64,000 bases of DNA, taken from contig JBDLRP010000046.1 in NCBI GenBank assembly GCA_039799905.1, positions 39,756 through 103,755 on the forward strand. The letters are read 5' to 3'. The position numbers and the translations under genes are program-made. This DNA comes from Pseudomonadota bacterium (GTDB lineage Bacteria > Bdellovibrionota_B > Oligoflexia > Silvanigrellales > Silvanigrellaceae). The notes beneath the pieces were generated by a model. It was not told where the DNA came from and made no database searches. It saw only the letters and a list, made by a program, of their open reading frames with translations. Shown in pieces: positions 35,383 to 50,549 of this stretch (positions are counted from its first letter, which is position 1; each line of letters begins with the position of its first letter).

Positions 35383-36333
35383 ATGTTTGCATCGGAATTC
35401 ACTTGGATTGGTGATCATCCTTTGAAATTTTCAACTCTCTTTTGCGCACTGTTGTTGACGGCCCCCATGCACAAGGCACTTGCCGTTGATGTGGAACATT
35501 TGATGAAATCCGGAGGAGAGGCTTTTGATTCCATCAAATCAAAAGGCCAACAAATGTATGAAAGCGGGAAATCAACCACCGGTGAGCTGCTCGACAAGGG
35601 TAAGGAAACGACCGGAGAGCTGTATGAGAAGGGCAAAGAAACCACCGGAGAGCTGTATGAGAAGGGCAAAGAAACCACCGGAGAAATAATCGACAAGGGA
35701 AAGAAAACCGCCGTAGATACATACGATAAGACCGTTGAAATGGTGAAAAAGGAACGCACCTCGCGTGACAACCGGAAAGACTCGTTTCTGACCCTGAACT
35801 TGAGCCCATTTGTTTATTTTTCACTTCCTTTGCCGAAATCCGGCTTTCAAATAGGTTGGGTGATCAATGAAGGTTGGACTGTTGATCCGGAATACCTGTC
35901 CGGCAGTTTTGGTTTCGATGTCGCAAAAATTTCGATTGGTGAAATCTCCGAAACACTCATCAGCCTTCCCCTCAGATACTTTCCGGGCAACAATTTCAAC
36001 TGGAAATTCGGCGGTACATACCGAAAACTTACAGCCGTTCTTGGCAACACCATCCTTGAAAAGATTGTCAATCGCCCCACCACACTCGACTTACTGGAAT
36101 ACAAGTTTTATTCGATCAATTTAGGCCTAGGAAACAGATGGCAATTGAACAATGGAATCACGCTCGGTGCAGACTGGCTCGATTTCAACATCCCCGTTTC
36201 AGTCGAAAGGAACGAAATCATAACATCGTACATCACAGATGAAAATGACAGGAAAAATGTCCGGAGGGGAATCGATATTTTAACTGCCCTTCAGTTCACG
36301 GCGCTCAAATTGCAGATTGGATATACCTTTTGA
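35383..36333 (+). CDS. secreted protein with 11-aa amphipathic repeats and a C-terminal outer-membrane beta-barrel-like domain
   Basis: Signal ending ALA|V, (GELYEKGKETT)n repeats, beta-strand-rich C-terminus ending LQIGYTF. Confidence 0.7.
   Translation: MFASEFTWIGDHPLKFSTLFCALLLTAPMHKALAVDVEHLMKSGGEAFDSIKSKGQQMYESGKSTTGELLDKGKETTGELYEKGKETTGELYEKGKETTGEIIDKGKKTAVDTYDKTVEMVKKERTSRDNRKDSFLTLNLSPFVYFSLPLPKSGFQIGWVINEGWTVDPEYLSGSFGFDVAKISIGEISETLISLPLRYFPGNNFNWKFGGTYRKLTAVLGNTILEKIVNRPTTLDLLEYKFYSINLGLGNRWQLNNGITLGADWLDFNIPVSVERNEIITSYITDENDRKNVRRGIDILTALQFTALKLQIGYTF
35578..35709 (+). repeat. 33-bp coding tandem repeat, four units (units 2 and 3 identical)
   Basis: accggagagctgtatgagaagggcaaagaaacc at 35611 and 35644, with degenerate copies at 35578 and 35677. 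Confidence 0.9.
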
Positions 36334-36383: not shown

Positions 36384-37067
36384 TCAAAACTCAATCACCA
36401 TGTGAATCTGCAGCGGCTGGGTGGGAACTTGCTGAGAACGATCGGAAGGAGCGGCGACGGGGGAGTACTGCGGTGACGAAAGAACGTCGACCAGACACGA
36501 CTGTTGTTCTTCCGAGAGAGTCACGGTCGTGTTGATAAGAAGAAGTGAGTGATCTGAAACGCGCCCGTTGGCAGGATTGAACGTCGCGCTCCAACGAACA
36601 CCTCCGCCACGCTGGGCACCTTTTAAACAGTCGGAAAGGCGCGGACTCCTCGCCAACACCTGCCTACGCAGGGCCTCAAACCACTCGGGTGCAGCCTGTT
36701 CACGCACCGTAAATTGGCCACGCTGAAGCTCACCCTGTTTGCCGCGCTCCGCCTTTGGAGTTTCGGGACGCACAGTCCTGAGAACAGGTGCCTTGCTGCC
36801 GGATGGTTGTGGTTGAGTGTCAGGCTGAGGGACAGCTGTTGGAGTGCAAGAGCAGCGGCTGATAACCAGCACAGCGATCGCGGCAACAATCAACAAAGCA
36901 GCGACCAGCCTGCCCCTTTTTGTCTTTTTAGGAAACCGCTTCTCAATGCGCTCTCGATGGACATTCTGCGCTTGAACGAGTGACGCCTTTAACTTTTCGA
37001 GCCGTTCGCGCGCTGCTCTTTTTGCAGAGCTCTGATCAGATTTTGGATCCAGCGGGCGTTGCGTCAC
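36384..37067 (-). CDS. bitopic membrane protein with Pro-rich linker and TonB-C/AgmX-PglI-like C-terminal domain (operon gene 12)
   Basis: Basic N-terminus, one TM (LVAALLIVAAIAVLVI), PQPDTQPQP linker, then LSDCL...GGVRW.ATF...GRV...SCLVDVL...IHMVIEF. Confidence 0.6.
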   Translation of the reverse strand: MTQRPLDPKSDQSSAKRAARERLEKLKASLVQAQNVHRERIEKRFPKKTKRGRLVAALLIVAAIAVLVISRCSCTPTAVPQPDTQPQPSGSKAPVLRTVRPETPKAERGKQGELQRGQFTVREQAAPEWFEALRRQVLARSPRLSDCLKGAQRGGGVRWSATFNPANGRVSDHSLLLINTTVTLSEEQQSCLVDVLSSPQYSPVAAPSDRSQQVPTQPLQIHMVIEF

Positions 37068-37070
37068 GGC

Positions 37071-38963
37071 TTACTCCACAATTTTCCAGCCAAGCACAAG
37101 CGATTCTCCCGCAGACCACTGTTCGGGCACAACCAAGATCGGAGCAAAAGGCTGTGGCGAAGAAGGTTTGGGAGCAGCGTATGGCCAGGGCAGTGGGTCG
37201 GTCGGTGCAACTCTGACGTGACCCACAAAGACGCCGTCCTGCGGATTGTACCCGCGTGCCTTTGTGGCCATCGACGACGCAGAATCGGTCGAAAGAACCC
37301 GCAGAATCTCGTGAGCCCTCTTTGAAAGCTTCTGCAGATTTTCGCCGACCCGTCCTTTTATTTTTCCGCTGCCATCCTGCAAATCAGAGAGCTTCTGCAG
37401 AATCGGCGCCATGCGCGTGCGGACCTGCGTATCTTCAGATTCAATTCTGTCCAGCAGCAAACCAGTGAAGCGCAATGTACTGTAAGGTTCTTCTTCCAAC
37501 CGACGCATCAGCCGGCGTGCAAATTCCTTCACCTCGCCTTTGGCCAGCAACAACAGTTGTTCCACACGGATTGCCGCGGCACTCCTCATGCGCAGTAGAG
37601 TCATCAACCGCTCGAATGAGCGCACGTCGGATCGCAGCGCTGCGCGCCATGCGAGATCTTCGAAAATCACCGAGTAGGCATCCTTGGGTAAGACTTCTTT
37701 GAGCACTGCCACCAGATCGGGAGTAACCCTCCACGTTCCAGAAATGTAGCTAATCCAACGTCTTGCCAATTGAGAGGCGACGGAATCATCACCCTCTTCC
37801 TGTCCGCTGTAGTTGATGGCGAGTCCGAGGTTCTTCAGGGCGTTGTGTACGTCACCGTTTTCCAAAGCGGCAAGCCCCCGCCGGAGGGCAATTGCCGGCC
37901 GTCCGAGAAATCCGCTCTGCTTGTCGAGCGAAAGCAAACGGCTTCCGCGCTCGCCTGACCAGATCTCACGCAACTCTGCTGGACTCGCATCCACGCTGTA
38001 TAAACCGATCCAGTTGCTCAACTCGCTGCCGACCTGTTGATCGATCAGTGCATCGAGAATGGGAATAATTTTTCGTCTGTCGGATACCCTGTCCGAACTC
38101 CCGGCAAAGACTTTTTCGAATAAGAAAAGCCGACGCGATGAGGGCAGCGCCATCCAGTCGGCTACCGTCCATTCCTCGGCGTCTGCGAGTATTTTTTCGC
38201 TTTCCTCGGTCAATTCGGAGCGGCCCATCAAAAACAAATGCAAATCGAAAATACGCGCCTGCAGCACGGGGATCCCCTGAACGTCGCGCATCTCAGAACT
38301 CGCCTTGTTAAGAACATCAATCATCAATTTTGCTGCTTGCGGTCGGGCAAGCTGCGTTTCTTCTAACAAATAGTTGAAGTAGTCCATACCACCACGGCTC
38401 AGGATATTGATGACCGAGCAACTCCCTTCGGGGAATTTGAGTGTGTTCAACTCCTCGGGCGAGAGAACGTCCCGTGCAGAAATTTTTCGTTCCTGTCGGC
38501 CACTGGAAAAGGCGGCGAACGGACTCACCGGCGGAGCCGGTTGTCCCCTGAAGAGAGAATTTAAAATCAAATTATGGACCGCCACAGTCCACAGACCATG
38601 TGCGTCTTGAGGCATGTCTTCAGGACACACTTTGAGTCTCGCCATCGCCAGCCAAGCGGCAGATGCTACGGTAGACTCCTGCACCGGAGCCGAGCCGCGA
38701 ACACTCGTCAGTGTATTCTTCAAAAACCACACTTTAAGTGCATCTTCGTAGCGGCGTGCGGCAATGAATGCGCGAGAACTGAGAAGCAATTGCTGGTCGA
38801 CGGCTTTTTCGCGTTGGCCGGACTCCTGGAGCGATAAATTTTCGCGGAGCGAGGGCGACGACCGCGCAGAAGAAACTTCTGCACACACCCCCACAGAGCT
38901 CCCAGAAAAGCAGGCTGCAATGAGCAAAAAAACAGCCGATTTATCTGCGACCCTAACGCGCAT
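37071..38963 (-). CDS. large secreted alpha-helical (TPR-like) hypothetical protein (operon gene 11)
   Basis: Signal-like N-terminus, helical repeats (RRGLAALENGDVHNALKNLGLA), Pro-rich C-terminus. Start overlaps the upstream stop. Confidence 0.7.
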   Translation of the reverse strand: MRVRVADKSAVFLLIAACFSGSSVGVCAEVSSARSSPSLRENLSLQESGQREKAVDQQLLLSSRAFIAARRYEDALKVWFLKNTLTSVRGSAPVQESTVASAAWLAMARLKVCPEDMPQDAHGLWTVAVHNLILNSLFRGQPAPPVSPFAAFSSGRQERKISARDVLSPEELNTLKFPEGSCSVINILSRGGMDYFNYLLEETQLARPQAAKLMIDVLNKASSEMRDVQGIPVLQARIFDLHLFLMGRSELTEESEKILADAEEWTVADWMALPSSRRLFLFEKVFAGSSDRVSDRRKIIPILDALIDQQVGSELSNWIGLYSVDASPAELREIWSGERGSRLLSLDKQSGFLGRPAIALRRGLAALENGDVHNALKNLGLAINYSGQEEGDDSVASQLARRWISYISGTWRVTPDLVAVLKEVLPKDAYSVIFEDLAWRAALRSDVRSFERLMTLLRMRSAAAIRVEQLLLLAKGEVKEFARRLMRRLEEEPYSTLRFTGLLLDRIESEDTQVRTRMAPILQKLSDLQDGSGKIKGRVGENLQKLSKRAHEILRVLSTDSASSMATKARGYNPQDGVFVGHVRVAPTDPLPWPYAAPKPSSPQPFAPILVVPEQWSAGESLVLGWKIVE

Positions 38964-39696
38964 AGCCGAGTCCAATTGTCAGGTCGGCATGTTTCGGCAT
39001 GGCCGTTCCAAGTATGGAGAGTGCGAGCATTGCTTTTGAACTGATGATAAGACCGCCCGAAGTGTAGAGGTGCAGGTTAAATCCTGTCAAAACGGCAATC
39101 TTTGCTGAATCAATTTTCATTGCCGCAGGTGCCGACGGAGAGAGCCGCTCTTTGTCGGACTCCGAGAGACGGGTGGCAATCAGTGATTTAAAACCATTGG
39201 AAAAACCCTGCCCCGACAAGAGTGAAGGGTAGATCATGTAGCGCACATCAGCCGCAAGAGAGAAAACCATTTGTGCCGCAGGCATAAAATCGGGCCTGAA
39301 AGTCACCACTCCCTCGGCTACCGGATAAAAACCACTCAGTTCCAATTCCCATCGTTCCGGTCGACCGGTTTGCCGGTAAGGCATCAAGGCAATCGCATCA
39401 GCAGACTCAGTCGAGAAGACAAAAGCCTTGGCCAAGCCGAGGCCGATCGTCATATTTTCCGAGGGAAACTGAACGGCAGCAGCTGCTCTGTAGGTCTCAA
39501 AATTGTTGTACTCAACCGGCTGCCCAACATTTGCAAAAACAAGGGATTGCTTCTTCCGCCAATCAAAACGGACAGACTTTCCTGCCACGCCGACGGTTCG
39601 CTCGACCAAAGCGGGAAACGGAATGACGTTCTCGGCAGCAAGTGCAGCCGACGGCCAGAGGAGTGCCAGTGAGAGAAGATTTCTTTTAAGGATCAA
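38953..39696 (-). CDS. putative outer-membrane beta-barrel protein (operon gene 10)
   Basis: AGGAGG RBS before in-frame TTG 39696, signal ending ALA|A, alternating beta-strands ending LTIGLGYAR. The longer ORF to 39972 only overlaps the upstream gene. Confidence 0.65.
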   Translation of the reverse strand: MILKRNLLSLALLWPSAALAAENVIPFPALVERTVGVAGKSVRFDWRKKQSLVFANVGQPVEYNNFETYRAAAAVQFPSENMTIGLGLAKAFVFSTESADAIALMPYRQTGRPERWELELSGFYPVAEGVVTFRPDFMPAAQMVFSLAADVRYMIYPSLLSGQGFSNGFKSLIATRLSESDKERLSPSAPAAMKIDSAKIAVLTGFNLHLYTSGGLIISSKAMLALSILGTAMPKHADLTIGLGYAR

Positions 39697-41716
39697 CTGG
39701 AAATCCTCCTTCCGGCGGGCGAGGAAAACGCGGCCTGTAGCAATTGGTCTGCAGTGCATCGCGCCAAGTTTGTCGCGCATTATAGGTTCCGCTTTCATCA
39801 AAAAATGGATGCTCGCAAAATCGTGTGCATTGGAGAAGCGCGTTGCCGATTTGAAAGTCCTGCTGCGTCCAACCGCTGCTGCCATAGGATTGCTGTTGAT
39901 TGAATGAAAGACCAAACGGAACGCTTGCCACCACTGCATTTGCGCTTCCGGCCAAAAAATTTGTGTATTCAAGGCGCAGAAGAAAGGGAAAGTCCCAGAT
40001 CAGACCGAGCTCATATGACCCGCCTTGCGAGGCTGAGTGCACCGCAGGAAGGTTTCCCAAAGGTAGCGGCTGCTGCGCGGCAGCGGCAGTGCGGAAGTAA
40101 AGTCTCGATGCGTCGGTAGAATTGGCGGCACAAAAACTGAAAAACTCCCCATTGCCAGCCGTCACACGCTCGTTGTTGAAAAACGTCACCCAAGCAAAAT
40201 CACCCAGAGCTACGTCGGTGGAAATCGCGGTTCGTTGTGGAGCCAATGCGCTGAGAGAATTCATTTTACCCGCATTAGCCTCGGAAAACTTGCTGAGAAA
40301 GTTTTCGTACGACTGTCGAGAGGGAAGGATAGGAAGGCTCGACAACTGCACGGGTCCCAAATTCAATGGGGGACCATCTGGCAGCACTGGACACGAGCGC
40401 TGCGACTCATCTGGAGCAGCAAATGGATCGACTCTGGGATCGACGAATGTTGAGGGACACCAGAGTGCCAGATTCTTGATCAGTGGATTTGTGACGACAT
40501 GCTGGCTTGAGTCAAAAACGAATGCACCGGTGACACGGGGAGACACCCGAGCACGTTCATCGGGTAAAATTTCTGCCAAAGTCTGTTCTAATTTCAACAC
40601 AAGATTTTTCGTCAGATCGTCATGATTCAGTGCGATGTAGAGTGTCATGTCGTTGCCGGCTGCACGAACCTGACTGATTCGTTCCTGAAAAACTGCACTC
40701 ATGCGGTCTTTGAAATCGGCCTGACTGAAGTCATCGGAGCAGATTTCAACCGGACTTTCCAACAGCAAGCGCTGCTTTTGCATGTTGAGATGCTGAAGCG
40801 AAATGGTCCGCCGACAGGGTGCAATTACGAAACCGACAGACGTGGTGCTTTTGACCGGACTGCGCAACGAGGAAAATGCGGCGCGGGTCTCCGGATTTTT
40901 CCGTGCAAACGCCGTGGCCGTAAAGCTGCCGGTTGCATCCTTGACAGTTGCCGACGCACAAACGGAATCCGCCGCAGATGCGGACGCAGGCAAGGCCCGC
41001 TGGTTGAACGCAGCGCGCTCGTTGGTTCGGACGAGATCGTCGACACCGGCCTGACTGTAAGATTGTGGGCAAGCCGGCTCTGCTCCGTAAAGGTATGGAT
41101 TTTCAGGTTCCGCAGTCGACGTATTGCCAAAAGACTGGTTTGTGATCTCGAACATGCGCCGCAGTCCGAGTGCCTGCGCTTCTTCGTTGCGGAGTGCGGG
41201 GAATACGTGTCGCCCGCGCCATTGAACAAAGGAATTGGACTCATCGAAGACTCCATAAACCACAAAGCTTCGATTCTGATGGGCGGTACCGCTCCTAATT
41301 ACAAATGATTCAGGCTTGACCACTGCGGAAATCTCGCCGTCGCGGTGATAGCGGAGGCGAAATGAAAGCGCGCGCGGCTCCTTGACCACTTTGTGACTTG
41401 CACTTCCGCAGATGCGGCCTGCGCCGCAGGAGACAGACTCGTGAATGTGAACCTGTTCACGACTCTGCGGGGCCAACCAGCCAACCTGACCGTCGTCATT
41501 CACATAGCTGACCTCAAAGACACTCTCAGAACGTAAACCGAGTGGTGAGCCGACGTTCCAAAAAAAGAACAGAGTCTGCTCGGCCTCATACCAAACCGCC
41601 TGAGCGATTTGAAACTGCGCCGGCGTGTATTCGAGTGGCACCTTGCTGCATGAGTGCAACAAAAATGCGATGAACGCGGCACAGATTTTTGAGACTTTCA
41701 AACCATTCAATTTCAT
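39686..41716 (-). CDS. large Cys-rich beta-rich lipoprotein (operon gene 9)
   Basis: Lipobox LHS|C, multiple paired Cys (CGAGRIC, CTRFC). ATGA overlap with the upstream gene. Confidence 0.75.
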   Translation of the reverse strand: MKLNGLKVSKICAAFIAFLLHSCSKVPLEYTPAQFQIAQAVWYEAEQTLFFFWNVGSPLGLRSESVFEVSYVNDDGQVGWLAPQSREQVHIHESVSCGAGRICGSASHKVVKEPRALSFRLRYHRDGEISAVVKPESFVIRSGTAHQNRSFVVYGVFDESNSFVQWRGRHVFPALRNEEAQALGLRRMFEITNQSFGNTSTAEPENPYLYGAEPACPQSYSQAGVDDLVRTNERAAFNQRALPASASAADSVCASATVKDATGSFTATAFARKNPETRAAFSSLRSPVKSTTSVGFVIAPCRRTISLQHLNMQKQRLLLESPVEICSDDFSQADFKDRMSAVFQERISQVRAAGNDMTLYIALNHDDLTKNLVLKLEQTLAEILPDERARVSPRVTGAFVFDSSQHVVTNPLIKNLALWCPSTFVDPRVDPFAAPDESQRSCPVLPDGPPLNLGPVQLSSLPILPSRQSYENFLSKFSEANAGKMNSLSALAPQRTAISTDVALGDFAWVTFFNNERVTAGNGEFFSFCAANSTDASRLYFRTAAAAQQPLPLGNLPAVHSASQGGSYELGLIWDFPFLLRLEYTNFLAGSANAVVASVPFGLSFNQQQSYGSSGWTQQDFQIGNALLQCTRFCEHPFFDESGTYNARQTWRDALQTNCYRPRFPRPPEGGFPVDP

Positions 41717-43527
41717 GAAGAGATCAGTTCCACCCAGCTGAGTTTTTGCGAGGTATACTCTTCAACCAGATTCTCCGAGAGTTTATTGCGGGCCAGCGCA
41801 GGATCGCGGCGGGGTCCGGCGGCCGCGGCGGACAAGGCGTTGGCAAGAGAGTTCGGCATTGCCGACTTGATCGCATCGCGGAACGATTGCGACTGTTCGG
41901 AAATCCACGCAGCCAAACTTGCAATGTCGGTATTGAGCATTAATGAAGTGCGCTGATCGGCAGACAACTTGAGCAGCATTTCGGGAAAGAAGATGTACTG
42001 CATCCAGTCGGGAGGCTGTCCGCCGTGCGCCTGAAGTCCCAGCTTTACAACTTCCTTACGCTGCTGGGGTGAAATCATCGGAAGTAAAACCGACAATGCG
42101 GCAGCCGCGTTGATTTCCTGTCCGTGATCCGAAGCCGAGGATGCCGTTCCCAGAGAAGGAACTGGCTTTCCCTCGCTCACACAACGTGCCGCCGTCAGAA
42201 TGGCCGAGAGTTCGTCGCGGGTTGCACGGTTGGAGCGGAGTAATTCGCCTGCACAGGCCGCGCGCTCCGTTTCATTTAACAGCAGTGCCGTGGACCTCTG
42301 CTCGGATGTCGAAATGAGCGAGAATAGAATCGCACCAAGCCGCTTAGGCAGAGAATTCATCAGCTGACGGATTCCGCTCGGGCCGAACTCATCGTGTATA
42401 CGCTGATAGATTTCGGCGTCACTTTGCGAAAGTATTGTTGCTGCGAGAGCGTGTTGATTGAGAATTCTGTAGAACTCAGCTCCGCTCGGGAGGTTTTCGT
42501 TCTTTGCATCCTTGAGATATTCGCTGAACTTGATTTTTCGTCCGGCAAATTCTCCATCTTCAGGAAAATCTGGCTTCACAAGTCCGTCGAATTCAAGAAC
42601 AGCTTTGGCCAGCATCGCGTAATTCTCGTCACGCAACCAGATGACGAACAAAGACTTAAGAACCTTGGGATCCTTTTCTATGCGTGAACGCCAGAGCATT
42701 GAATGCTCGGCAGCAAAGGCCTTCTCGATGGTCTCGACGTCGAGAATTGAAGATTTCTCGGGATCCGGTTTGAGTTCCTGCAAGTCGAGAGGTTCGGGAG
42801 TTGGAGCCGTCAGCGAGGCTTCCATCATTTTCTCTTCCACGGTCTTCACACCCAGCCGGCGCCAAGCCCAAATCAGAGCCAACACACAGATCGTCAGCAA
42901 AATCCCGCCAAACATGGCAGGAAAATAGGGTAAGAGGCTGAGCCACAATTCGCGGAACAAACCCTCTTTGCCGACTTCTGGTCCGGCAGGCTTCTCGGCC
43001 TTTTTGTCGTCGACTTTGTCTGCAGCGGGCGAAGCCGCGGGAGTTGGGAGTGGAGTTGGAGTCGACTTGAGAGAGTCGGGTAGCGGCGGAAGCTGTTTCG
43101 CCTCGACAGTCACCACCGTATAGCCTTTGCTGAGCTTCTGCTCGAGGCGGCGGACGAGTGTCTGCCTGTCTTTGGCGGGAATGCTTGTTTCGGTTGCCAC
43201 CTCGCAACGCGCCGCCGTAAGATATTCCTGAACTGGCACAGAACCTGGGCCGCGCTCATCTCCGATCCCCGGCAGAGCTCCTTGCTTGGGTTTGTCGGTC
43301 GTGGCGTGCGACACATAGAAGCAGCCACGCGAAAAACATTTATCCGCGGGACAATCTTGCGTGAGCGCCAACTCAAATTGATTTTCAAGCCGCTTGAGCT
43401 CTGCTGCTACAGACGGCGGAATGTGCGTCTCAGGAACACCCGAGGCCGCATACGACATTGGTGCTACCAACAACCCAAGCAAAAGCAGCAAACTTTTCAC
43501 GCAACCAACTCCCAAGCTTCGATACAT
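41713..43527 (-). CDS. putative FliF(RBM3)-FliG fusion-like rotor protein (operon gene 8)
   Basis: Signal peptide, then a periplasmic ring-building-motif-like domain with LPGI, a Pro linker and one TM. IEKDPKVLKSLFVIWL resembles the FliF C-terminal helix. SLPKRLGAILFSLI...LLLNETERAACAGEL resembles FliG-M. IFFPEMLLKLSADQRTSLMLNTDIASLAAWISEQSQSFRDAIKSAMP...GPRR resembles FliG-C. Confidence 0.65.
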   Translation of the reverse strand: MYRSLGVGCVKSLLLLLGLLVAPMSYAASGVPETHIPPSVAAELKRLENQFELALTQDCPADKCFSRGCFYVSHATTDKPKQGALPGIGDERGPGSVPVQEYLTAARCEVATETSIPAKDRQTLVRRLEQKLSKGYTVVTVEAKQLPPLPDSLKSTPTPLPTPAASPAADKVDDKKAEKPAGPEVGKEGLFRELWLSLLPYFPAMFGGILLTICVLALIWAWRRLGVKTVEEKMMEASLTAPTPEPLDLQELKPDPEKSSILDVETIEKAFAAEHSMLWRSRIEKDPKVLKSLFVIWLRDENYAMLAKAVLEFDGLVKPDFPEDGEFAGRKIKFSEYLKDAKNENLPSGAEFYRILNQHALAATILSQSDAEIYQRIHDEFGPSGIRQLMNSLPKRLGAILFSLISTSEQRSTALLLNETERAACAGELLRSNRATRDELSAILTAARCVSEGKPVPSLGTASSASDHGQEINAAAALSVLLPMISPQQRKEVVKLGLQAHGGQPPDWMQYIFFPEMLLKLSADQRTSLMLNTDIASLAAWISEQSQSFRDAIKSAMPNSLANALSAAAAGPRRDPALARNKLSENLVEEYTSQKLSWVELISS

Positions 43528-44156
43528 CAGTAGACCCGCACAACCACTCTGCGGTGTCGTGCCAATCGCTCCTCTTCCGACAGTCCGGCCAACTCGGCAT
43601 CAGGCAACGGCTTGGTATCCGCATAAGCCTCAACCCTGATTTTTTGGCGCGGAATACCAAATCCCTCGAGTCTTGCACGCAACTCAATGGCACGTGAACT
43701 TGCAAGTTCCCAGTTCGATGCAAAGCGACCGACACCGTTGACCACGGGAGTACTATCGGTATGGCCTTCCACGGCGAAAGAATATTTTCCGCCGTACGAG
43801 GAGAGCGATTTGAGCATCTCGGTGAGTGTTTGTTCCCATTCAGTGCGAATGGATGCGCTGCCTGAATCAAACATGATTCCGGAGTTCAGTGACAGCGCAA
43901 GTCCGTCATCATTGAGCGCAGTCCGAACCACTTTCTCGAGGCCGGCGACTTTAATTTTTGCGTCAATTTCACGTTGAATGGATTCAAGGCTCTGGGCACT
44001 TTCCTCTCCGCTGAGATTACGCGCAATCTGCTGCATCTTCACACGGGAAATTTGCGCTGCAGACATCAGCATCGCAAAGAACAGCAACAGATTGGTGATC
44101 AGATCGGCATAGGAGAGAAGCCAACCCTCCTCGGATCCTTTGGTACGCCGCTGCAT
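43527..44156 (-). CDS. motB: MotB-type stator subunit (TM with conserved Asp, plug, OmpA-like peptidoglycan-binding domain) (operon gene 7)
   Basis: WLLSYADLITNLLLFF, plug-like ISRVKMQQIARNL, VEGHTD, NWELASSRA, HRRVVV. Confidence 0.9.
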   Translation of the reverse strand: MQRRTKGSEEGWLLSYADLITNLLLFFAMLMSAAQISRVKMQQIARNLSGEESAQSLESIQREIDAKIKVAGLEKVVRTALNDDGLALSLNSGIMFDSGSASIRTEWEQTLTEMLKSLSSYGGKYSFAVEGHTDSTPVVNGVGRFASNWELASSRAIELRARLEGFGIPRQKIRVEAYADTKPLPDAELAGLSEEERLARHRRVVVRVY

Positions 44157-44159
44157 ACC

Positions 44160-44861
44160 TCAGCCCTCCGCCAAAAGATCATTGACGCTCTTTTGGCAAC
44201 GCTCCACCATTCCGATGCGCTCATCGAGAAGGGTGTTGAGATAGTGACTGATTGGACCAGCGATTCCGGCTCCGAAGGCCACTCCGTACAGCGTTGCTGT
44301 CAGAGCGAGCGACATTGCGGTGCCGATATTCGTATTGTCGGAGGTCATGTTTTTGAAGAGTTGAATCATGCCCGTGATGGTGCCCACCATTCCAAATGAC
44401 GGGCCGAGTTTTGACAGCATTTCCCAATTGTGGATGGCCGGCTGCAGCCTCTCGATTTCGTCGTGACGAAGTTCAGTGAACACCTTTTCTGACGATGCGC
44501 CAGCTGCCCTGCGCAGGAGAAGTTGGACAAAAACCTTGCTTGACTCAAACTCAGACTTGTCCAAAAACTCGAGGACCTGCGATTTTTTTCCTTCGCGCCA
44601 CAGCGTACTGATTCGTTCACGTTCGTCGTCCATCAGTTGTGTCTGCCTTGAAAATCGACGCAGCCCCGGGATGAACTCCTTGAGACAGGTCAGTGTTCGG
44701 AGCGCCGTTTTGCTGCTTGATCCGAGCAGCACTGCGGCTGCGCAACCGACAAGCACCATCACGAGTGCGTGTGGGTCGAAGGCGGAGACCTGAGTCATGT
44801 TGCGCGGACTGAACCCGATGGCGATGACGACGAACAACAAAATGATTCCAAACAGCTGCAT
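44160..44861 (-). CDS. motA: MotA-type stator subunit (MotA/TolQ/ExbB channel family) (operon gene 6)
   Basis: From ATG 44861: two N-terminal TMs, WREG...LE, GPSFGMVGTITGMIQLFKNM..IGTAMSLALTATLYGV...PI. The ORF extension to 45080 only overlaps the upstream gene. Confidence 0.85.
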   Translation of the reverse strand: MQLFGIILLFVVIAIGFSPRNMTQVSAFDPHALVMVLVGCAAAVLLGSSSKTALRTLTCLKEFIPGLRRFSRQTQLMDDERERISTLWREGKKSQVLEFLDKSEFESSKVFVQLLLRRAAGASSEKVFTELRHDEIERLQPAIHNWEMLSKLGPSFGMVGTITGMIQLFKNMTSDNTNIGTAMSLALTATLYGVAFGAGIAGPISHYLNTLLDERIGMVERCQKSVNDLLAEG

Positions 44862-44880
44862 TGCCGACCCCGATGAAAAG

Positions 44881-45534
44881 TTATTTGCTATTCTTGTTGC
44901 TGCGCAAATCTTCCAGTTTTTTGCGAACCGACGGATCACTTTCGATCTCTTCAGACTTCTCCCAAATCTCGATCGCCTTCTCGCGTTCGCCCACCAACAG
45001 CAGAATTGAACCCTTGGCTCTGAGAAATTCAGGATGCGAGGGATACCGTGAGAGCACCATTTCAGCATACTCGAGAGCAAGTGAATAATTGGCGTTTCTG
45101 ATTGCCTCTTGCATCAGACTGCGCGAACGCGAGACACTCACATCAGGTGCGTTCTCGTTCACCTTCAATCCTCGCTCGCGATAAGCCTCGGTAAGCGACT
45201 TATCTGCAGCAACCGGCGGCGGAGGAACCAAACGCGTTGTGGGCAAAACCTTGACCTTCTGATTGTCCGCACTGTGCTCAACAATCACTCTTTGCGACGA
45301 AGCCAGCATCGGGATGTCAACCTCAGTGAGAATCTTGCCGTCGTTCCAGCGAACCTTGAGCGCAGTCGTAGAGCCGACACTTTGCGGCTGCAACGGCCGC
45401 CCTTCTTCCCTCAATGAGTCATGCCCGCGCACAGCGTTGTAGATGAGATAATGAGTGTAATTGCGCGGTGTGGCACAACCGGCCAGCAAGGCGGCGAAGA
45501 TGAAATTTAACAACAAAGACAATGAATTTTTCAT
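44881..45534 (-). CDS. TPR-containing lipoprotein (operon gene 5)
   Basis: Lipobox LAG|C; C-terminal TPRs (NYSLALEYAEMVLSRYPSHPEFLRAKGSILLLVGEREKAIEIWEKS). Confidence 0.8.
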   Translation of the reverse strand: MKNSLSLLLNFIFAALLAGCATPRNYTHYLIYNAVRGHDSLREEGRPLQPQSVGSTTALKVRWNDGKILTEVDIPMLASSQRVIVEHSADNQKVKVLPTTRLVPPPPVAADKSLTEAYRERGLKVNENAPDVSVSRSRSLMQEAIRNANYSLALEYAEMVLSRYPSHPEFLRAKGSILLLVGEREKAIEIWEKSEEIESDPSVRKKLEDLRSNKNSK

Positions 45535-46517
45535 GGCACCACCGGAAGAAATGAGCTGTTGAGGGTGGACACGCCGATTCCGACTTTGCCGTTGGTCGAG
45601 ACAAAGAAATTAACTGCATAGTTGCCGTTAAAAACGGGCACCGGAAGACGAGCAATGCCAACAAGTGTCAAAAGCGGATCAACAAACTGCGTCGGTGCAT
45701 CGCCTCCAAAATTTCTTGTCAGCGATCTGATCAGCGCCGTTGGCACGCTCATCAAAAGTTTTCCTCCGAGCATTGCATTCATCAGGTTCGGAAAGGCCTC
45801 GCCATAGGAAGCACCCAATCCTAACACCGGATCAAGCAACGAAGCGGAAACGCCAAAAAACCGCTGATTGAAGCTTCCCCACTGCTCAAGAAAGTCGAGT
45901 GCAATGTGTTGAGACGGATAAAAACCCAAATCAAGAACCGCATGGGTCAGGCTGTCGCCTCGGTGCCTACGTAGAAGGTCTTTGGAAGCGGTGTAGTTCT
46001 GCTGGCTGCGCTGCTGGGCGGAAAAAGCGGGCGAGATATTCTGGGCGAAGACAACTCTGCCCGACACAAGTGACACACCCCTTACGGTGATGCCGTCTGA
46101 ATTTTCAGAGATCCACCAGCCGGTTTGTGACGGTGGAGTGGCACCTCGCATGGCTGAATCGAAGTCTGAAATATCAGCAAGTGTCATTGAATCGGGAGAG
46201 ATGACCTCCAGTCCGGAATCGCGGATTTTGCTGTGACTCGCAGAGCAACCCTCGCAATAGCGAACATTCGCAGGGCCAAATGCACCACGAAGACTCTGTA
46301 TAGACCTGTCGACGAATGAACTCCGGCTCTCTTCATACGAAGGCACGGCTCGGACGATAATGGTGGGAAAAATCTCGCCGGCATTCAACGCAAGGCTGTC
46401 GAGCTGATCGCGCAAAATCTCTTCAAGCCGCAGGAACGACTCTGCTGTGTTCTGACGCTCGGCATGCGCGGAGGATTGCCAAAATAAGGCGATCAAAAAA
46501 GTTAAAATCAGAACCAA
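45531..46517 (-). CDS. secreted protein with CxxC and C-terminal beta-barrel-like region (operon gene 4)
   Basis: GGAGG RBS before in-frame TTG 46517, which overlaps the upstream stop. Signal ending AHA|E, YCEGC, C-terminal beta-strands. Confidence 0.65.
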   Translation of the reverse strand: MVLILTFLIALFWQSSAHAERQNTAESFLRLEEILRDQLDSLALNAGEIFPTIIVRAVPSYEESRSSFVDRSIQSLRGAFGPANVRYCEGCSASHSKIRDSGLEVISPDSMTLADISDFDSAMRGATPPSQTGWWISENSDGITVRGVSLVSGRVVFAQNISPAFSAQQRSQQNYTASKDLLRRHRGDSLTHAVLDLGFYPSQHIALDFLEQWGSFNQRFFGVSASLLDPVLGLGASYGEAFPNLMNAMLGGKLLMSVPTALIRSLTRNFGGDAPTQFVDPLLTLVGIARLPVPVFNGNYAVNFFVSTNGKVGIGVSTLNSSFLPVVP

Positions 46518-47755
46518 AATCCCACCTCCATTCCGGCGGACTGAAATTCGAGCCCTGCGTCCAGGTAGGTGCCGAAGTTCTGCGAACCAGCAAATGCCGG
46601 CATGGACTCCAGGAAAGCGGACAGGCTGACTCTGTTCTTGACGCGTGCCTCGAGTGCCAATCGAAACGAAGAAAAAGATGCTCGCGGTTGAGTGCCGTTG
46701 CGATCTGCAATGATTTCCGCGACGTTGATTGTACTTTTGCGAAAGGTCGCAGCGGTGCTTCCGCGCAGGTTTGTCACCGCACCGCCGACGACAAAATAAA
46801 GGTCGGGCTCCGTGAGAGAGCGCATGCGACCTGAAATCAGCCTGGAAAAACGCCCACCGGCAAGCCAACCGTCATGAGAATCCACTTGGTTTGTGATGCC
46901 GAGATTGAATTCAGCGGTCCAAACTCTGGACTGTGAGAAAGACGTTTCGGCCCCTGCAATGAACCAGACGAGTGGAGGGATAACGACCGCGGCAGTTGCA
47001 GTAGGCCGACCAAAGGGATCTGTTTCTGTGGTGTTCTGCGAAAGAGCAAAATTGTGAACGCCAACACGAATCGGAAATGAGAAGAACGGGTTGTTTCGAA
47101 GAATGTCCAAATACTCCTGCCGCGCCTCGGATGCGCTTTTGAGATTGGCGGCGCTTCGCAATAGAACCGGCGACGTTGTCGAAGTCGAGATGGTTCGGGC
47201 GTAGACTATTGGCAGATTCTCACGGATTTCGGTCACTCTTCCGCGCAGTACCAACTGCGATTTTTCAGCTTCAATATCCAAAAATATGGCGTATTTTGCC
47301 ACCGTTCCAATTCCTGCCGAAGACAAAATCTCATTCAGCCGCAGCCCGCGTCCCATAATTGTTGCGCGCGGTCCGGAATGAGCAACAACAGCACTGCATT
47401 CTGGACAATGAACCAAGTCCATTTTTGTTTCTGAATTCTTGAGAATCAATTCGGCAAAGTGATTCTCAAGATATGCAGTCATTCCTGCCCCAAAACCATA
47501 GGGCACATTGACCCCGGCAAGCACAACGTTGGAACGCGTGGAAAAAATCGGATTCGCCTTCAATCCAAAAACAAACTCATCCAGCAAGTCGGCTGACATG
47601 AGCTGCAATTCGGATGCGACGGACGCACGCGACTTTTCAAGCAAAACAACTTCATCCGGCATTAACGGTTCATTTGCAGCCGCAGAAAGGACACAGAAAA
47701 AAGACGCCACAACTGCCATCAGCTTCAGAACGTGTCGTATCATCAAAGAAGCCAT
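46508..47755 (-). CDS. secreted protein with CxxC domain and C-terminal outer-membrane beta-barrel (operon gene 3)
   Basis: Signal ending SAAA, HCPEC, beta-strand-rich C-terminus ending GMEVGFWF (terminal Phe typical of BAM substrates). Confidence 0.7.
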   Translation of the reverse strand: MASLMIRHVLKLMAVVASFFCVLSAAANEPLMPDEVVLLEKSRASVASELQLMSADLLDEFVFGLKANPIFSTRSNVVLAGVNVPYGFGAGMTAYLENHFAELILKNSETKMDLVHCPECSAVVAHSGPRATIMGRGLRLNEILSSAGIGTVAKYAIFLDIEAEKSQLVLRGRVTEIRENLPIVYARTISTSTTSPVLLRSAANLKSASEARQEYLDILRNNPFFSFPIRVGVHNFALSQNTTETDPFGRPTATAAVVIPPLVWFIAGAETSFSQSRVWTAEFNLGITNQVDSHDGWLAGGRFSRLISGRMRSLTEPDLYFVVGGAVTNLRGSTAATFRKSTINVAEIIADRNGTQPRASFSSFRLALEARVKNRVSLSAFLESMPAFAGSQNFGTYLDAGLEFQSAGMEVGFWF

Positions 47756-48390
47756 TGCCAGTCACCCGTATGTGTACAAAGTCCCGCGTGTAACTGCGTC
47801 TCTGCCGGATTGATTTGAAACAACGCCAACAGTTTTTCGTTTTGGCCAAGATGGCTCGCATACTCGCGGCACAGGATTGGCAAACCCTCAGTTATCTTCA
47901 TTCCCGAAAAAGCAGCCACGGCACTCACTCCCAAAACCGGCGACTGGTCGAAAACTGAATCGCGCAATTCGGACAGCGACGTCTTTGCTGCCGTTGCAAC
48001 TTTCTCTGCAACCAGCGGGTCGTCATGAAAGGCCTCGATACGCCAAAGAGTCTTTTCTGGTGCCCGTAATTTTGCAGTTCTGACAAGTTCGGGAATCTGG
48101 GCGGAAAGTCCGGACAAGAGTGACTCTACGGGCGCCCGACGCTCCGCCATAGGAAGAACACGACCTGTGCATTCCATCAGGTCTTCGTTCATAATTTCGC
48201 CGCGCGGAAATGCTTCATGATTTTCTTCGGACAAACGGCGCCGCATTTGCTCACCGGTGAGCAACCTGCACTCTGCGTCGCTTGAGGTTTCGCGGGCCGT
48301 GCGAAAGAGCCCCGGTGCCGGATCGAAAATTCCGCTCAAAATGAGCGGAACGACAACATACAATGATGCCAAATAGAAAATCAGCATCAT
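47743..48390 (-). CDS. membrane-anchored periplasmic hypothetical protein (operon gene 2)
   Basis: N-terminal hydrophobic anchor, four Cys, ATGA overlap with the upstream gene. Confidence 0.7.
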   Translation of the reverse strand: MMLIFYLASLYVVVPLILSGIFDPAPGLFRTARETSSDAECRLLTGEQMRRRLSEENHEAFPRGEIMNEDLMECTGRVLPMAERRAPVESLLSGLSAQIPELVRTAKLRAPEKTLWRIEAFHDDPLVAEKVATAAKTSLSELRDSVFDQSPVLGVSAVAAFSGMKITEGLPILCREYASHLGQNEKLLALFQINPAETQLHAGLCTHTGDWQWLL

Positions 48391-49166
48391 TTTCTCCCTG
48401 CGTTCTGGGCTGATTCCATCAGTATCGCCTGCTGCCGCATGCCGGCATTCAAAATCAGCTGGCTCATCTGTGCACGCAGGTCACTTGTCATTTGCCGACC
48501 GGCAGAGTCCTCGTTGATCTGCTCAGCGTTCGAACGAAAGAAAAAATTCGCTGCGGCATTGAGGGCCATGTAGCCAAGGCCCGTGTACTCAATGAAACGC
48601 ATCTGAAATGTTTCGTCCTTCAAGACAATTCCATCTTTTCCGCGGATGATGATGCGCTGTTCATCGGTAAACTCTTCGACTATCGGGATCAGTGAAAGTG
48701 AATAGTAAAACAATATTCCCAGCCATCCATGCTGCTCATGCCTGACACGTTTGGCAGACAATTCTGCTGTCAGATGAATATTCCTGTCGGACGTTTTCTT
48801 TGCAGGCGCACGCCCCCCAACGAACGTGTCTTGAGATATTTTCACCGAAGCCTCGCCTGCTTCAGTATTGGGCGAATCGAGTTCAGCATCTTCACCGGAA
48901 TCGACGGGACCCACGAAAACCCGAGCACCCTGAGCCTCAAAATGAGCCGAGAGATTCCCGCAGAGCATGTTCGCGTTCTGACTGGTCAGGAGTGGTCCAA
49001 CCTCACAGATCAGGCGAATTGAGAAATCTTTGAAGTTGTTTTCGGAAAACTCGATTGCAAGCGGCTGCCTGATGGCACCGAGTGGATGGTAAACCACAGT
49101 CGCACAGGCACTGAGAGTTGTCGTTGCCAAAAAGAGCGCGAACAGAGCGCAGTTTCTTCCAAGCAT
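48387..49166 (-). CDS. hypothetical lipoprotein (operon gene 1)
   Basis: Lipobox LSA|C; internal hydrophobic segment GWLGILFYYSLSLIPIV. Confidence 0.72.
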   Translation of the reverse strand: MLGRNCALFALFLATTTLSACATVVYHPLGAIRQPLAIEFSENNFKDFSIRLICEVGPLLTSQNANMLCGNLSAHFEAQGARVFVGPVDSGEDAELDSPNTEAGEASVKISQDTFVGGRAPAKKTSDRNIHLTAELSAKRVRHEQHGWLGILFYYSLSLIPIVEEFTDEQRIIIRGKDGIVLKDETFQMRFIEYTGLGYMALNAAANFFFRSNAEQINEDSAGRQMTSDLRAQMSQLILNAGMRQQAILMESAQNAGRK

Positions 49167-49202: not shown

Positions 49203-49248
49203 ATTTTAGCAGCCGCTGTTTAGCCAGACAAGCGACAAAGGCTTGTCT
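49203..49248 (-). promoter_or_regulatory. candidate sigma70 promoter of the 12-gene operon with an overlapping inverted repeat
   Basis: Minus strand TTGTCT-N17-TAAAAT with TG extension (49231-49203). Perfect inverted repeat AGACAAGC-N7-GCTTGTCT (49226-49248) covers the -35. Confidence 0.45.
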
Positions 49249-49841: not shown

Positions 49842-50549
49842 TCAGAGTGCATAGCCAATTGATAAATTCAACGGGCTCAAGTTAGTTGCTTCCGCTGCCT
49901 CTTTATTGGCTCGGCGTGAGAGTTCAAAAGTATTGGCGGAAAACTTATCGTTCTGAACATATGTTTCTGAGATCCGTGCGACTGGATTCGTGACCCGGAG
50001 CCATTCGACAATAAAGAAAAAATTCTCTCTTCCCCACCGCGAACCAATGACCCATTGATTGCTGACTTGACGTTGGCTGGCCTTAAAATCATTGTCAGCT
50101 ATAGGCGTGTTTGGATTACCCTTCAACGCAGATTCAAACATCTGGTAGTCGACGCCAAGTGAGAAATAGAATGAGTCATTCAAAAAGAACGCGCCGCGAA
50201 AACCGAGACGGTAGATGTCGGCCTTATAGCGCTTGTGCAGCATTCCAGTGCGATGTCCGCCACCCGCCTCAAAAAGAATCCGATCATTCAGCGTTCTACC
50301 GAAGGCAAGTTCCAGCTCGGCAAGATTCAAAATGCCATAGGGGATAGAAACTCTGACAAAATTGGGATGCCGCAGTCTTGCATGGGTATGCGACCCCGTG
50401 GCCACTCGCGGAGGTAGATCCGTGCTCTTGTTCTCTTCTTTCGGTGTGGACCACGCAACAGGAGCGAGCAAAAACATCATCAGAAATGAAAAAGAGTTTA
50501 TGAAAAATTTGCTGCCCAAATTCACGCGTAACCTCTGATTGATTCTCAC
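49842..50549 (-). CDS. putative outer-membrane beta-barrel protein
   Basis: Signal ending AWS, beta-strands, C-terminal LNLSIGYAL. Similar in pattern to the C-terminal domain of 35383..36333. Confidence 0.65.
   Translation of the reverse strand: MRINQRLRVNLGSKFFINSFSFLMMFLLAPVAWSTPKEENKSTDLPPRVATGSHTHARLRHPNFVRVSIPYGILNLAELELAFGRTLNDRILFEAGGGHRTGMLHKRYKADIYRLGFRGAFFLNDSFYFSLGVDYQMFESALKGNPNTPIADNDFKASQRQVSNQWVIGSRWGRENFFFIVEWLRVTNPVARISETYVQNDKFSANTFELSRRANKEAAEATNLSPLNLSIGYAL

Follow-up and report, generated by a model that had tools for sequence, protein, structure and literature searches.

A putative stand-alone rotary envelope motor with a single-chain FliG rotor and a flagellar-type stator in Oligoflexia and myxobacteria

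Introduction

FliG is regarded as specific to the flagellum. A recent survey reports rotor genes in 11% of non-motile species and raises another function for them without naming it (10.1101/2024.12.05.626484). Here we analyze a 12-gene operon, which we call the cassette, in a 64-kb stretch of DNA (the window) from a Silvanigrellaceae genome of the class Oligoflexia (assembly GCA_039799905.1, contig JBDLRP010000046.1). The product of the operon is probably an ion-driven rotary motor of the cell envelope that stands alone, acts on the outer membrane and turns no flagellum. The cassette is real, conserved across two phyla and unexplained by any known system.

The closest described machine is the flagellar motor core. 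Common to both are a flagellar-type MotA, a MotB with a plug, an OmpA-like domain and a catalytic Asp, the N, M and C domains of FliG, and an RBM3-like domain followed by a transmembrane segment (TM) and a FliF-C-like helix pair. In contrast to the flagellar rotor, the cassette rotor (gene g8) is one chain with a signal peptide, and it lacks RBM1, RBM2 and the long beta-collar. The EHPQ motif, which in FliG binds FliM, is not kept in g8 or its family, nor are the acidic torque residues; the MotB linker is ~55 amino acids (aa) shorter, and nine unrelated envelope proteins accompany the motor. Export gate, ATPase, FliM/FliN, rod, hook and filament are absent from the locus, as judged with 14 queries that included FliE and no other hook or rod protein. 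A natural FliF-FliG fusion reportedly exists in Chlorobium tepidum. Engineered FliF-FliG fusions also place the rotor in one chain, and in non-motile hosts they form rings although no other flagellar parts are present (PMC6079021). Those are full-length laboratory constructs, whereas g8 occurs naturally, is truncated and comes with a stator and partners of its own.

Other ion-driven motors are coupled to the outer membrane. ExbBD-TonB, TolQRA and the AglRQS-Glt system of Myxococcota belong to the same 5:2-type motor family and act on outer-membrane proteins, and they resemble the cassette in layout only, with a bitopic protein with a Pro-rich linker (g12 here) and, as in Glt, a lipoprotein with tetratricopeptide repeats (TPR) and barrels. 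Unlike them, the cassette has a MotB rather than ExbD or TolR as its B subunit, a FliG rotor, and accessory genes without a family match, and its host keeps separate Tol, Exb and Agl/Glt-like loci. Type IX secretion with Gld gliding is alike in concept (ion-driven motor, periplasmic ring, outer-membrane translocon, surface cargo), whereas Pfam and NCBIfam scans of the cassette matched no GldLM, GldKN or SprA family, and its ring is predicted to be FliG-driven and in the inner membrane. Zorya ZorAB is a MotAB-like pair with a peptidoglycan-binding B subunit used outside flagella; the cassette has neither the ZorA tail nor Zorya effectors and does have a rotor. Judged from sequence, the cassette falls outside the flagellum, Zorya and Ton/Tol/Glt families, and would work like the flagellar torque core. 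Its motor parts are known ones; as a machine, it would be entirely new. Our literature search, with subscription papers and bioRxiv supplements outside its reach, found no description of such a cassette, and none is given in the accessible parts of PMC12505986, 10.1101/2024.07.22.604496, PMC13277936, PMC13445942, 10.1101/2024.12.05.626484, PMC6079021, 10.64898/2025.12.04.692373 and PMC6060248.

Results

A compact twelve-gene operon

Twelve minus-strand open reading frames (ORFs), g1 to g12, are read from position 49166 to 36384 of the window and are bounded by divergent and convergent neighbor genes. With the chosen starts, the 11 junctions from g1 to g12 measure -4, -13, -10, -4, +19, +3, -1, -4, -11, -11 and +3 nucleotides (nt). 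The g4 start was set by comparison with homologues, and signal peptides were called from hydropathy and by eye. The genes are:

g1, 48387..49166, minus strand: lipoprotein, 259 aa; Cys21, Cys54 and Cys69 conserved (49 rows)
g2, 47743..48390, minus strand: periplasmic protein with N-terminal anchor, 215 aa; four conserved Cys
g3, 46508..47755, minus strand: exported protein, 415 aa; alpha/beta domain with CxxC at the N-terminus, predicted beta-barrel at the C-terminus
g4, 45531..46517, minus strand: exported protein, 328 aa; CxxC domain and predicted beta-barrel
g5, 44881..45534, minus strand: TPR lipoprotein, 217 aa
g6, 44160..44861, minus strand: MotA, 233 aa, flagellar-type, without a long cytoplasmic tail
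g7, 43527..44156, minus strand: MotB, 209 aa; TM with Asp18, plug, short linker, OmpA-like domain
g8, 41713..43527, minus strand: single-chain rotor, 604 aa; signal peptide, RBM3-like domain (34-149), Pro-rich linker, TM (~202-221), FliF-C-like helices, then FliG N/M/C
g9, 39686..41716, minus strand: large Cys-rich lipoprotein, 676 aa; 13 conserved Cys
g10, 38953..39696, minus strand: exported protein, 247 aa, predicted small beta-barrel; family C-terminus GxGYAF
g11, 37071..38963, minus strand: large exported protein, ~630 aa, mostly helical
g12, 36384..37067, minus strand: bitopic inner-membrane protein, 227 aa; TM (51-69), Pro-rich linker, small C-terminal domain, invariant Cys pair

A flagellar-type stator

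The g6 protein matches PF01618 (E 1.7e-16), and its best NCBIfam matches are flagellar stator models (7e-17, versus 0.002 for TolQ). The g7 protein contains MotB_plug (3e-12) and OmpA (1e-12) domains and matches flagellar MotB NCBIfam models at 7e-28. These flagellar models score best for both proteins, yet below the model cut-offs. Flagellar-type (FIT) stators are described by a MotB with a TM Asp, a plug/linker and an OmpA-like domain, and a MotA with two N-terminal TMs and an enlarged cytoplasmic torque domain (PMC12505986). Each of the MotB elements is recognizable in g7, and for g6 the full-length match to flagellar models points to the MotA architecture. The W, A and D of the MotB TM motif are invariant in 60/60 rows. 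P154 of MotA (equivalent to P173) is kept in 69/69 rows, T190 (equivalent to T209) in 67/69 and the P222 equivalent in 66/69; the MotA alignment (A9) included three non-cassette rows. Between the Asp and the GHTD strand, 40/40 cassette MotB span 110-112 aa, compared with 160-166 aa in 12 flagellar MotB. At the sequence level, then, g6 and g7 carry the hallmarks of a flagellar-type stator. A quick tree of 77 MotA rows, without bootstrap, placed 41 cassette MotA in one group (Shimodaira-Hasegawa-like approximate likelihood ratio test, SH-aLRT, 100) on a long stem, apart from host flagellar MotA, where 'flagellar' is a label given by locus type and not by function.

Such a pair could also belong to a Zorya-like anti-phage sensor, since g7 matches PADLOC ZorB profiles (E 9e-17) and the cassette has a patchy, island-like spread. 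However, the flagellar MotB models score g7 higher, g6 shows neither a ZorA match nor a long tail, and the 12 proteins include no ZorC/D/E-like effector, which makes a Zorya-like sensor barely credible.

A single-chain rotor

A search among 1.84 billion representatives returned 145 relatives of g8. The family profile, built from 73 rows (g8 and 72 relatives), matched FliG M and C in the PDB (E 2.5e-16), and g8 matched FliG-bearing Atlas clusters from Myxococcota, Bacteroidota, Balneolota and others. The AlphaFold2 model of g8 (predicted local distance difference test score, pLDDT, 87.4; predicted TM-score, pTM, 0.62) runs from a signal helix through an alpha-beta-beta-alpha-beta domain (38-145), a disordered Pro-rich linker and a long TM-containing helix to helical domains. 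With this model, the 11 top Foldseek rows were all FliG or C-ring entries. VIA-align placed residues 512-596 on FliG-C (Z 10.1, root-mean-square deviation, RMSD, 2.4) and residues 301-603 on FliG 5-328 (Z 8.9, RMSD 13.7), the domain arrangement being different. By profile and by predicted fold, g8 is related to FliG.

The model contains one periplasmic domain only, and this domain has no significant match to the FliF RBM1 or RBM2 profiles; the RBM1, RBM2 and RBM3 set expected of FliF is absent. Residues 34-149 superpose on FliF RBM3 (Z 9.1, RMSD 3.6, 94 aa; second match Z 8.8, 98 aa). We consider the domain likely to be RBM3-like because its fold and context fit, and because paralogous fusions in the same genome, named C29 and C19 and described below, bridge to RBM3 by profile (g8 to C29 type, E 1e-4; C29 to RBM3, E 0.014; C19 to RBM3, E 5e-5). 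An LPG loop is conserved in the g8 family (L 91%, P 99% and G 99% of 146 rows). Loops at the collar-insertion position of FliF grip the rod, according to a recent report (10.64898/2025.12.04.692373); that the LPG loop is their equivalent is offered as a suggestion only.

A sequence-only reading of this window had listed twelve minus-strand genes that overlap or lie at most 19 nt apart, three lipoproteins, one with TPRs, and a flagellar-type MotA/MotB pair without a ZorA-type tail. The ORFs and junctions, the family-conserved lipoprotein Cys in g1, g5 and g9, the TPRs in g5 and the stator profiles bear this out. It had also named a 'FliF/FliG-like protein'; the FliG relation holds by profile and fold, and what it under-weighted is that g8 is the key, dedicated rotor.

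Conservation in two phyla

Orthologues of g8 (E 2e-82 or better) are present in 29/131 genomes of the phylum, including the window's own genome (G000, 93.8% complete). In the host genus, 3/13 genomes have one, with differing flanks. We compiled 80 loci, of which 25 came from g8-carrier genomes (two duplicates dropped) and 55 were metagenome loci found with the g5 alignment. The complete 12-gene set is present in 29/80 loci (15 genome, 14 metagenome); two of these, L129 and L133, nearly duplicate another locus. Of the 51 incomplete loci, 49 end before the missing genes would be reached, judged from free space; in L056, g11 and g12 were undetected, and L137 contains just a single, partial g5. 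Because the locus profiles were built from the same loci, their E-values are not independent.

The genes stand in one of two orders, either that of the window (type A) or one in which motAB is divergent and an extra lipoprotein is present (type B). This lipoprotein (~250 aa, CYEGW start) lies between g8 and g9 (L047:11195-11938 and 15 similar ORFs) and is absent from the window. Most metagenome loci have 61-74% GC, and a Myxococcota-named protein shares up to 68% identity with the g8 encoded there. Named homologues of g3 occur in Archangium violaceum and A. minus, and those of g8 (38-39% identity) in A. violaceum, A. lansingense, Hyalangium rubrum, H. versicolor and H. gracile. The locus-tag difference between g3 and g8 is 25 in 4/4 named Myxococcota genomes with both (JQX13_37035-37060 in A. 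violaceum); taking the usual locus-tag step to be 5, this spans five genes, a type A-like spacing. The Archangium and Hyalangium carriers are known from g3/g8 homologues and locus tags, not from all twelve genes.

Nine envelope proteins and a TonB-like layout

The accessory proteins matched no named family apart from the TPR repeats. Single-protein Pfam, NCBIfam and PADLOC scans of g1-g4 and g8-g12 gave nothing usable, member-wise Pfam scans of the g3, g4, g10 and g12 alignments gave no credible match, and neither did PDB profile searches with g3, g4, g9, g11 and g12. We predict g3, g4 and g10 to be barrels from alternating-hydropathy stretches and C-terminal aromatic motifs; this label has no Pfam match and, for g3 and g4, no PDB match (g10 was outside the PDB search). 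The N-domains of g3 and g4 are paralogous (hhalign E 5e-5). Weak profile matches link g3 to the barrel gene (E 2e-6) and g5 to the TPR lipoprotein (E 3e-7) of the C29 cassette, and g2 has a counterpart in type B cassettes (hhalign E 6e-7). For g11 there were weak matches only, to designed helical repeats. The Atlas placed g9 near clusters with LamG and thiol-cytolysin domains, but the top score (0.86) was below our 0.9 bar and the model had low confidence, so this match was not used. We regard g9 as a candidate cargo or surface part.

The sequence-only reading had called g12 TonB-C-like, a label without family or PDB support; profiles detected neither a TonB_C nor an AgmX-type transducer domain. 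The likeness of g12 to TonB and TolA is one of layout (TM, Pro-rich linker, small C-terminal domain). This raises a rather unlikely alternative, in which the same motor energizes TonB-like uptake and torque or pull through g12 opens the barrels to import macromolecules captured by the lipoproteins. The patchy spread of the cassette, with varied flanks within the genus, and the several cassettes per genome would resemble substrate-specific systems of that kind. But the cassette encodes no plug-and-barrel transporter, its predicted barrels are of only 247-415 aa, catabolic or transport neighbors are not conserved, and ExbBD-TonB requires no FliG ring.

Separation from the flagellum

The 14 flagellar protein queries found no flagellar gene in the 64-kb window, nor in the 80 loci (914 kb). 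Their sole match in the loci, an ATPase gene in L104, was set aside, as its sequence looks like Rho. The window's genome encodes a complete flagellum elsewhere: FlhA, FliF and FliG are present, as are rod proteins and FlgI, there are eight flagellin-N matches, and motAB is separate from that of the cassette. Its genes are scattered: motAB stands alone on contig C45, and fliG-fliH-fliI-fliJ (fliG on C39) and fliF (C21) are on different contigs. The flagellar gene regions are:

C39:56283-57338
C21:254309-256799
C36:84000-103400

Could the cassette be an accessory or alternative stator and scaffold for an ordinary flagellum, or a decaying remnant of one? Many bacteria use several stator pairs, and the Oligoflexia carriers have FliF in 29/29 and FlhA in 28/29 genomes. 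Against this, the cassette has its own rotor, with its own signal peptide and without RBM1/RBM2; its frames are intact and its MotA is 92-98% identical within the genus; and cassette genes are present in myxobacteria. Flagellated genera without the cassette exist, and in the genus labelled 'g8', 12 flagellated genomes have no full-length match to the rotor and 10/12 have one MotB. We therefore consider a flagellar accessory or remnant very unlikely. Myxobacteria are stated to lack flagella (PMC6060248). One further genome (G018; 93% complete, 140 contigs) carries a sister cassette while FlhA, FliF and flagellin are unmatched. That cassette (L267:5097-12155) encodes a 354-aa exported protein, a TPR protein, a 592-aa FliG fusion, MotA, MotB, a barrel-like protein and a lipoprotein.

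The window's genome further holds Tol-Pal, ExbBD and an Agl/Glt-like cluster. These bear on a surface-motility motor like the ring and track of Bacteroidota Gld, with an adhesin moved along the cell. The hosts belong to gliding or predatory lineages, g9 could be the adhesin, and ring, stator and outer-membrane lipoproteins match the logic of Gld. The genome already has a flagellum and the Agl/Glt-like cluster, however, and 102/131 relatives have no full-length g8 match, so we regard such a motor as unlikely.

Sister cassettes in the same genome

Two further orphan rotor-stator cassettes are present in the window's genome:

C29 cassette, L003:7817-13806: barrel-like gene, TPR lipoprotein, MotA, MotB, 827-aa fusion
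C19 cassette, L004:6503-15201: 757-aa fusion, MotA, MotB; barrel and TPR lipoprotein divergent

Large lipoproteins flank both. In the C29 fusion, two CxxxC periplasmic domains follow each other in tandem; in many Oligoflexia its relatives are not next to motAB and instead have thioredoxin-like and transpeptidase-like genes as neighbors (by eye). A HAMP/SpoIIE phosphatase gene stands next to the C19 type, and a lipoprotein gene of >2100 codons faces the C19 cassette. That a single genome holds three different cassettes, whose envelope partners also differ, fits the idea of a motor that is reused while its output is exchanged.

The phosphatase gene beside C19, with similar-sized neighbors recurring in some relatives (by size only), would also suit a mechanosensor or envelope-stress sensor, in which a load on the outer-membrane module would bring the rotor to a halt, with a cytoplasmic read-out. 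As no signaling gene is found within the 12-gene set or conserved in its flanks, we regard a sensor as highly improbable.

Related units and neighboring genes

Four genomes without a FlhA, FliF or flagellin match contain a four-gene unit (L264:6734-13380 in G048, L265, L266 and L268:168-7037) encoding a 350-aa coiled-coil protein, MotA, a short MotB and a 1389-1446-aa SF1-helicase-like protein (AAA_11/AAA_12), which looks like an undescribed Zorya-like arrangement. Lone divergent FliG-like genes (318-333 aa) lie outside flagellar clusters (L269:6478-7467 in G048, L270, L271, and L005:7562-8515 on C19 of the window's genome), and they also occur in genomes without flagellar markers.

GC at third codon positions (GC3) is 0.52-0.65 in the cassette and 0.57 +/- 0.05 in the genome, and thus gives no sign of recent transfer; no plasmid match was found. 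A promoter scan was at chance overall (7 sites found, 7.7 expected); one site, at 49203-49231 on the minus strand, 37 nt upstream of g1, is sigma-70-like with an extended -10. Related-looking barrel-type genes without a family match lie on both sides of the cassette (35383-36333, plus strand, and 49842-50549, minus strand), the former with tandem 11-residue, GELYEKGKETT-like repeats.

Discussion

The sequence-only reading had proposed a stand-alone apparatus without flagellar genes, and had stated that it would fall if the gene set were not kept as a unit, if the accessory genes mapped to flagellar, Glt or Zorya components, or if this motAB were the sole stator of a flagellum encoded elsewhere. 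None of this came about: the set is complete in 29 loci and kept in two orders, the accessory genes match none of those families, and the host flagellum has its own motAB, fliF and fliG. The locus is separate, as claimed, and free of flagellar genes; the organism itself is flagellated, and that account gave the rotor too little weight.

From the observed parts list, motifs, co-inheritance and separation from the flagellum, we propose the following mechanism. MotA5B2 units anchored to peptidoglycan would push the FliG-C domains of a g8 ring. Because there is no FliM/FliN at the locus and no EHPQ motif, the ring would be unswitched. With no export gate or rod, force would have to pass to the cassette's own periplasmic and outer-membrane proteins, possibly through the LPG loop, g5 or g12, and on to an outer-membrane complex of the predicted barrels g3, g4 and g10, the lipoproteins g1 and g5, and g11. 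The g9 protein may be moved or exported through or along this complex. Three points favor a surface-protein output: the size (676 aa) and the 13 conserved Cys of the lipoprotein g9, the large lipoproteins that flank both sister cassettes, and the other motility systems of the host.

Several observations weigh against this proposal. In the stator, MotA has a basic K/R93 in 69/69 rows and an acidic residue 101 in 63/69, but their register relative to R90/E98 is ambiguous. In the rotor, C-terminal domains of unrelated CDF transporters equal RBM3 on g8 34-149 (Z up to 9.5), and the direct profile comparison of this domain with FliF RBM3 was not significant (E 0.35). The LPG-loop equivalence scored as high in 7/40 shuffles. 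The g8 family does not conserve D288/D289, the acidic torque residues of FliG, and an R281-like Arg is present in 66/146 rows. In a quick tree without bootstrap, the FliG domains of g8 from types A and B failed to come together in a single group. Co-inheritance is what links the rotor to the outer-membrane proteins. Finally, FliF and FlhA are nearly universal among the Oligoflexia carriers, with a background of 115/131 and 112/131. Remnant flagellar genes are said to occur in the Archangium/Hyalangium family, and the flagella-free status of those carriers is taken from the general statement on myxobacteria (PMC6060248), not from their genomes.

Weighing these points, we consider a working stand-alone rotor-stator quite likely from its motifs and predicted structure. 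Given such a rotor-stator, the movement or export of a large surface protein, with g9 as the candidate, for surface or prey contact is a tentative assignment that falls somewhat short of probable. On balance, we think that the cassette represents a new class of rotary machine, a single-chain, unswitched flagellar torque core joined to its own outer-membrane complex of nine proteins without a known family, with several parallel cassette types per genome in Oligoflexia and with carriers among cultured myxobacteria.

If this is true, FliG would have a naturally occurring use outside the flagellum, and the cassette would offer a living model of a rotor-stator that has no export apparatus. It is a concrete candidate for the non-flagellar function of rotor genes, and its presence in cultured hosts such as Archangium violaceum makes rotor-stator function without flagellum, export gate or switch testable. 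Study of the cassette may, in addition, uncover a new system for secretion or surface contact in predatory lineages.

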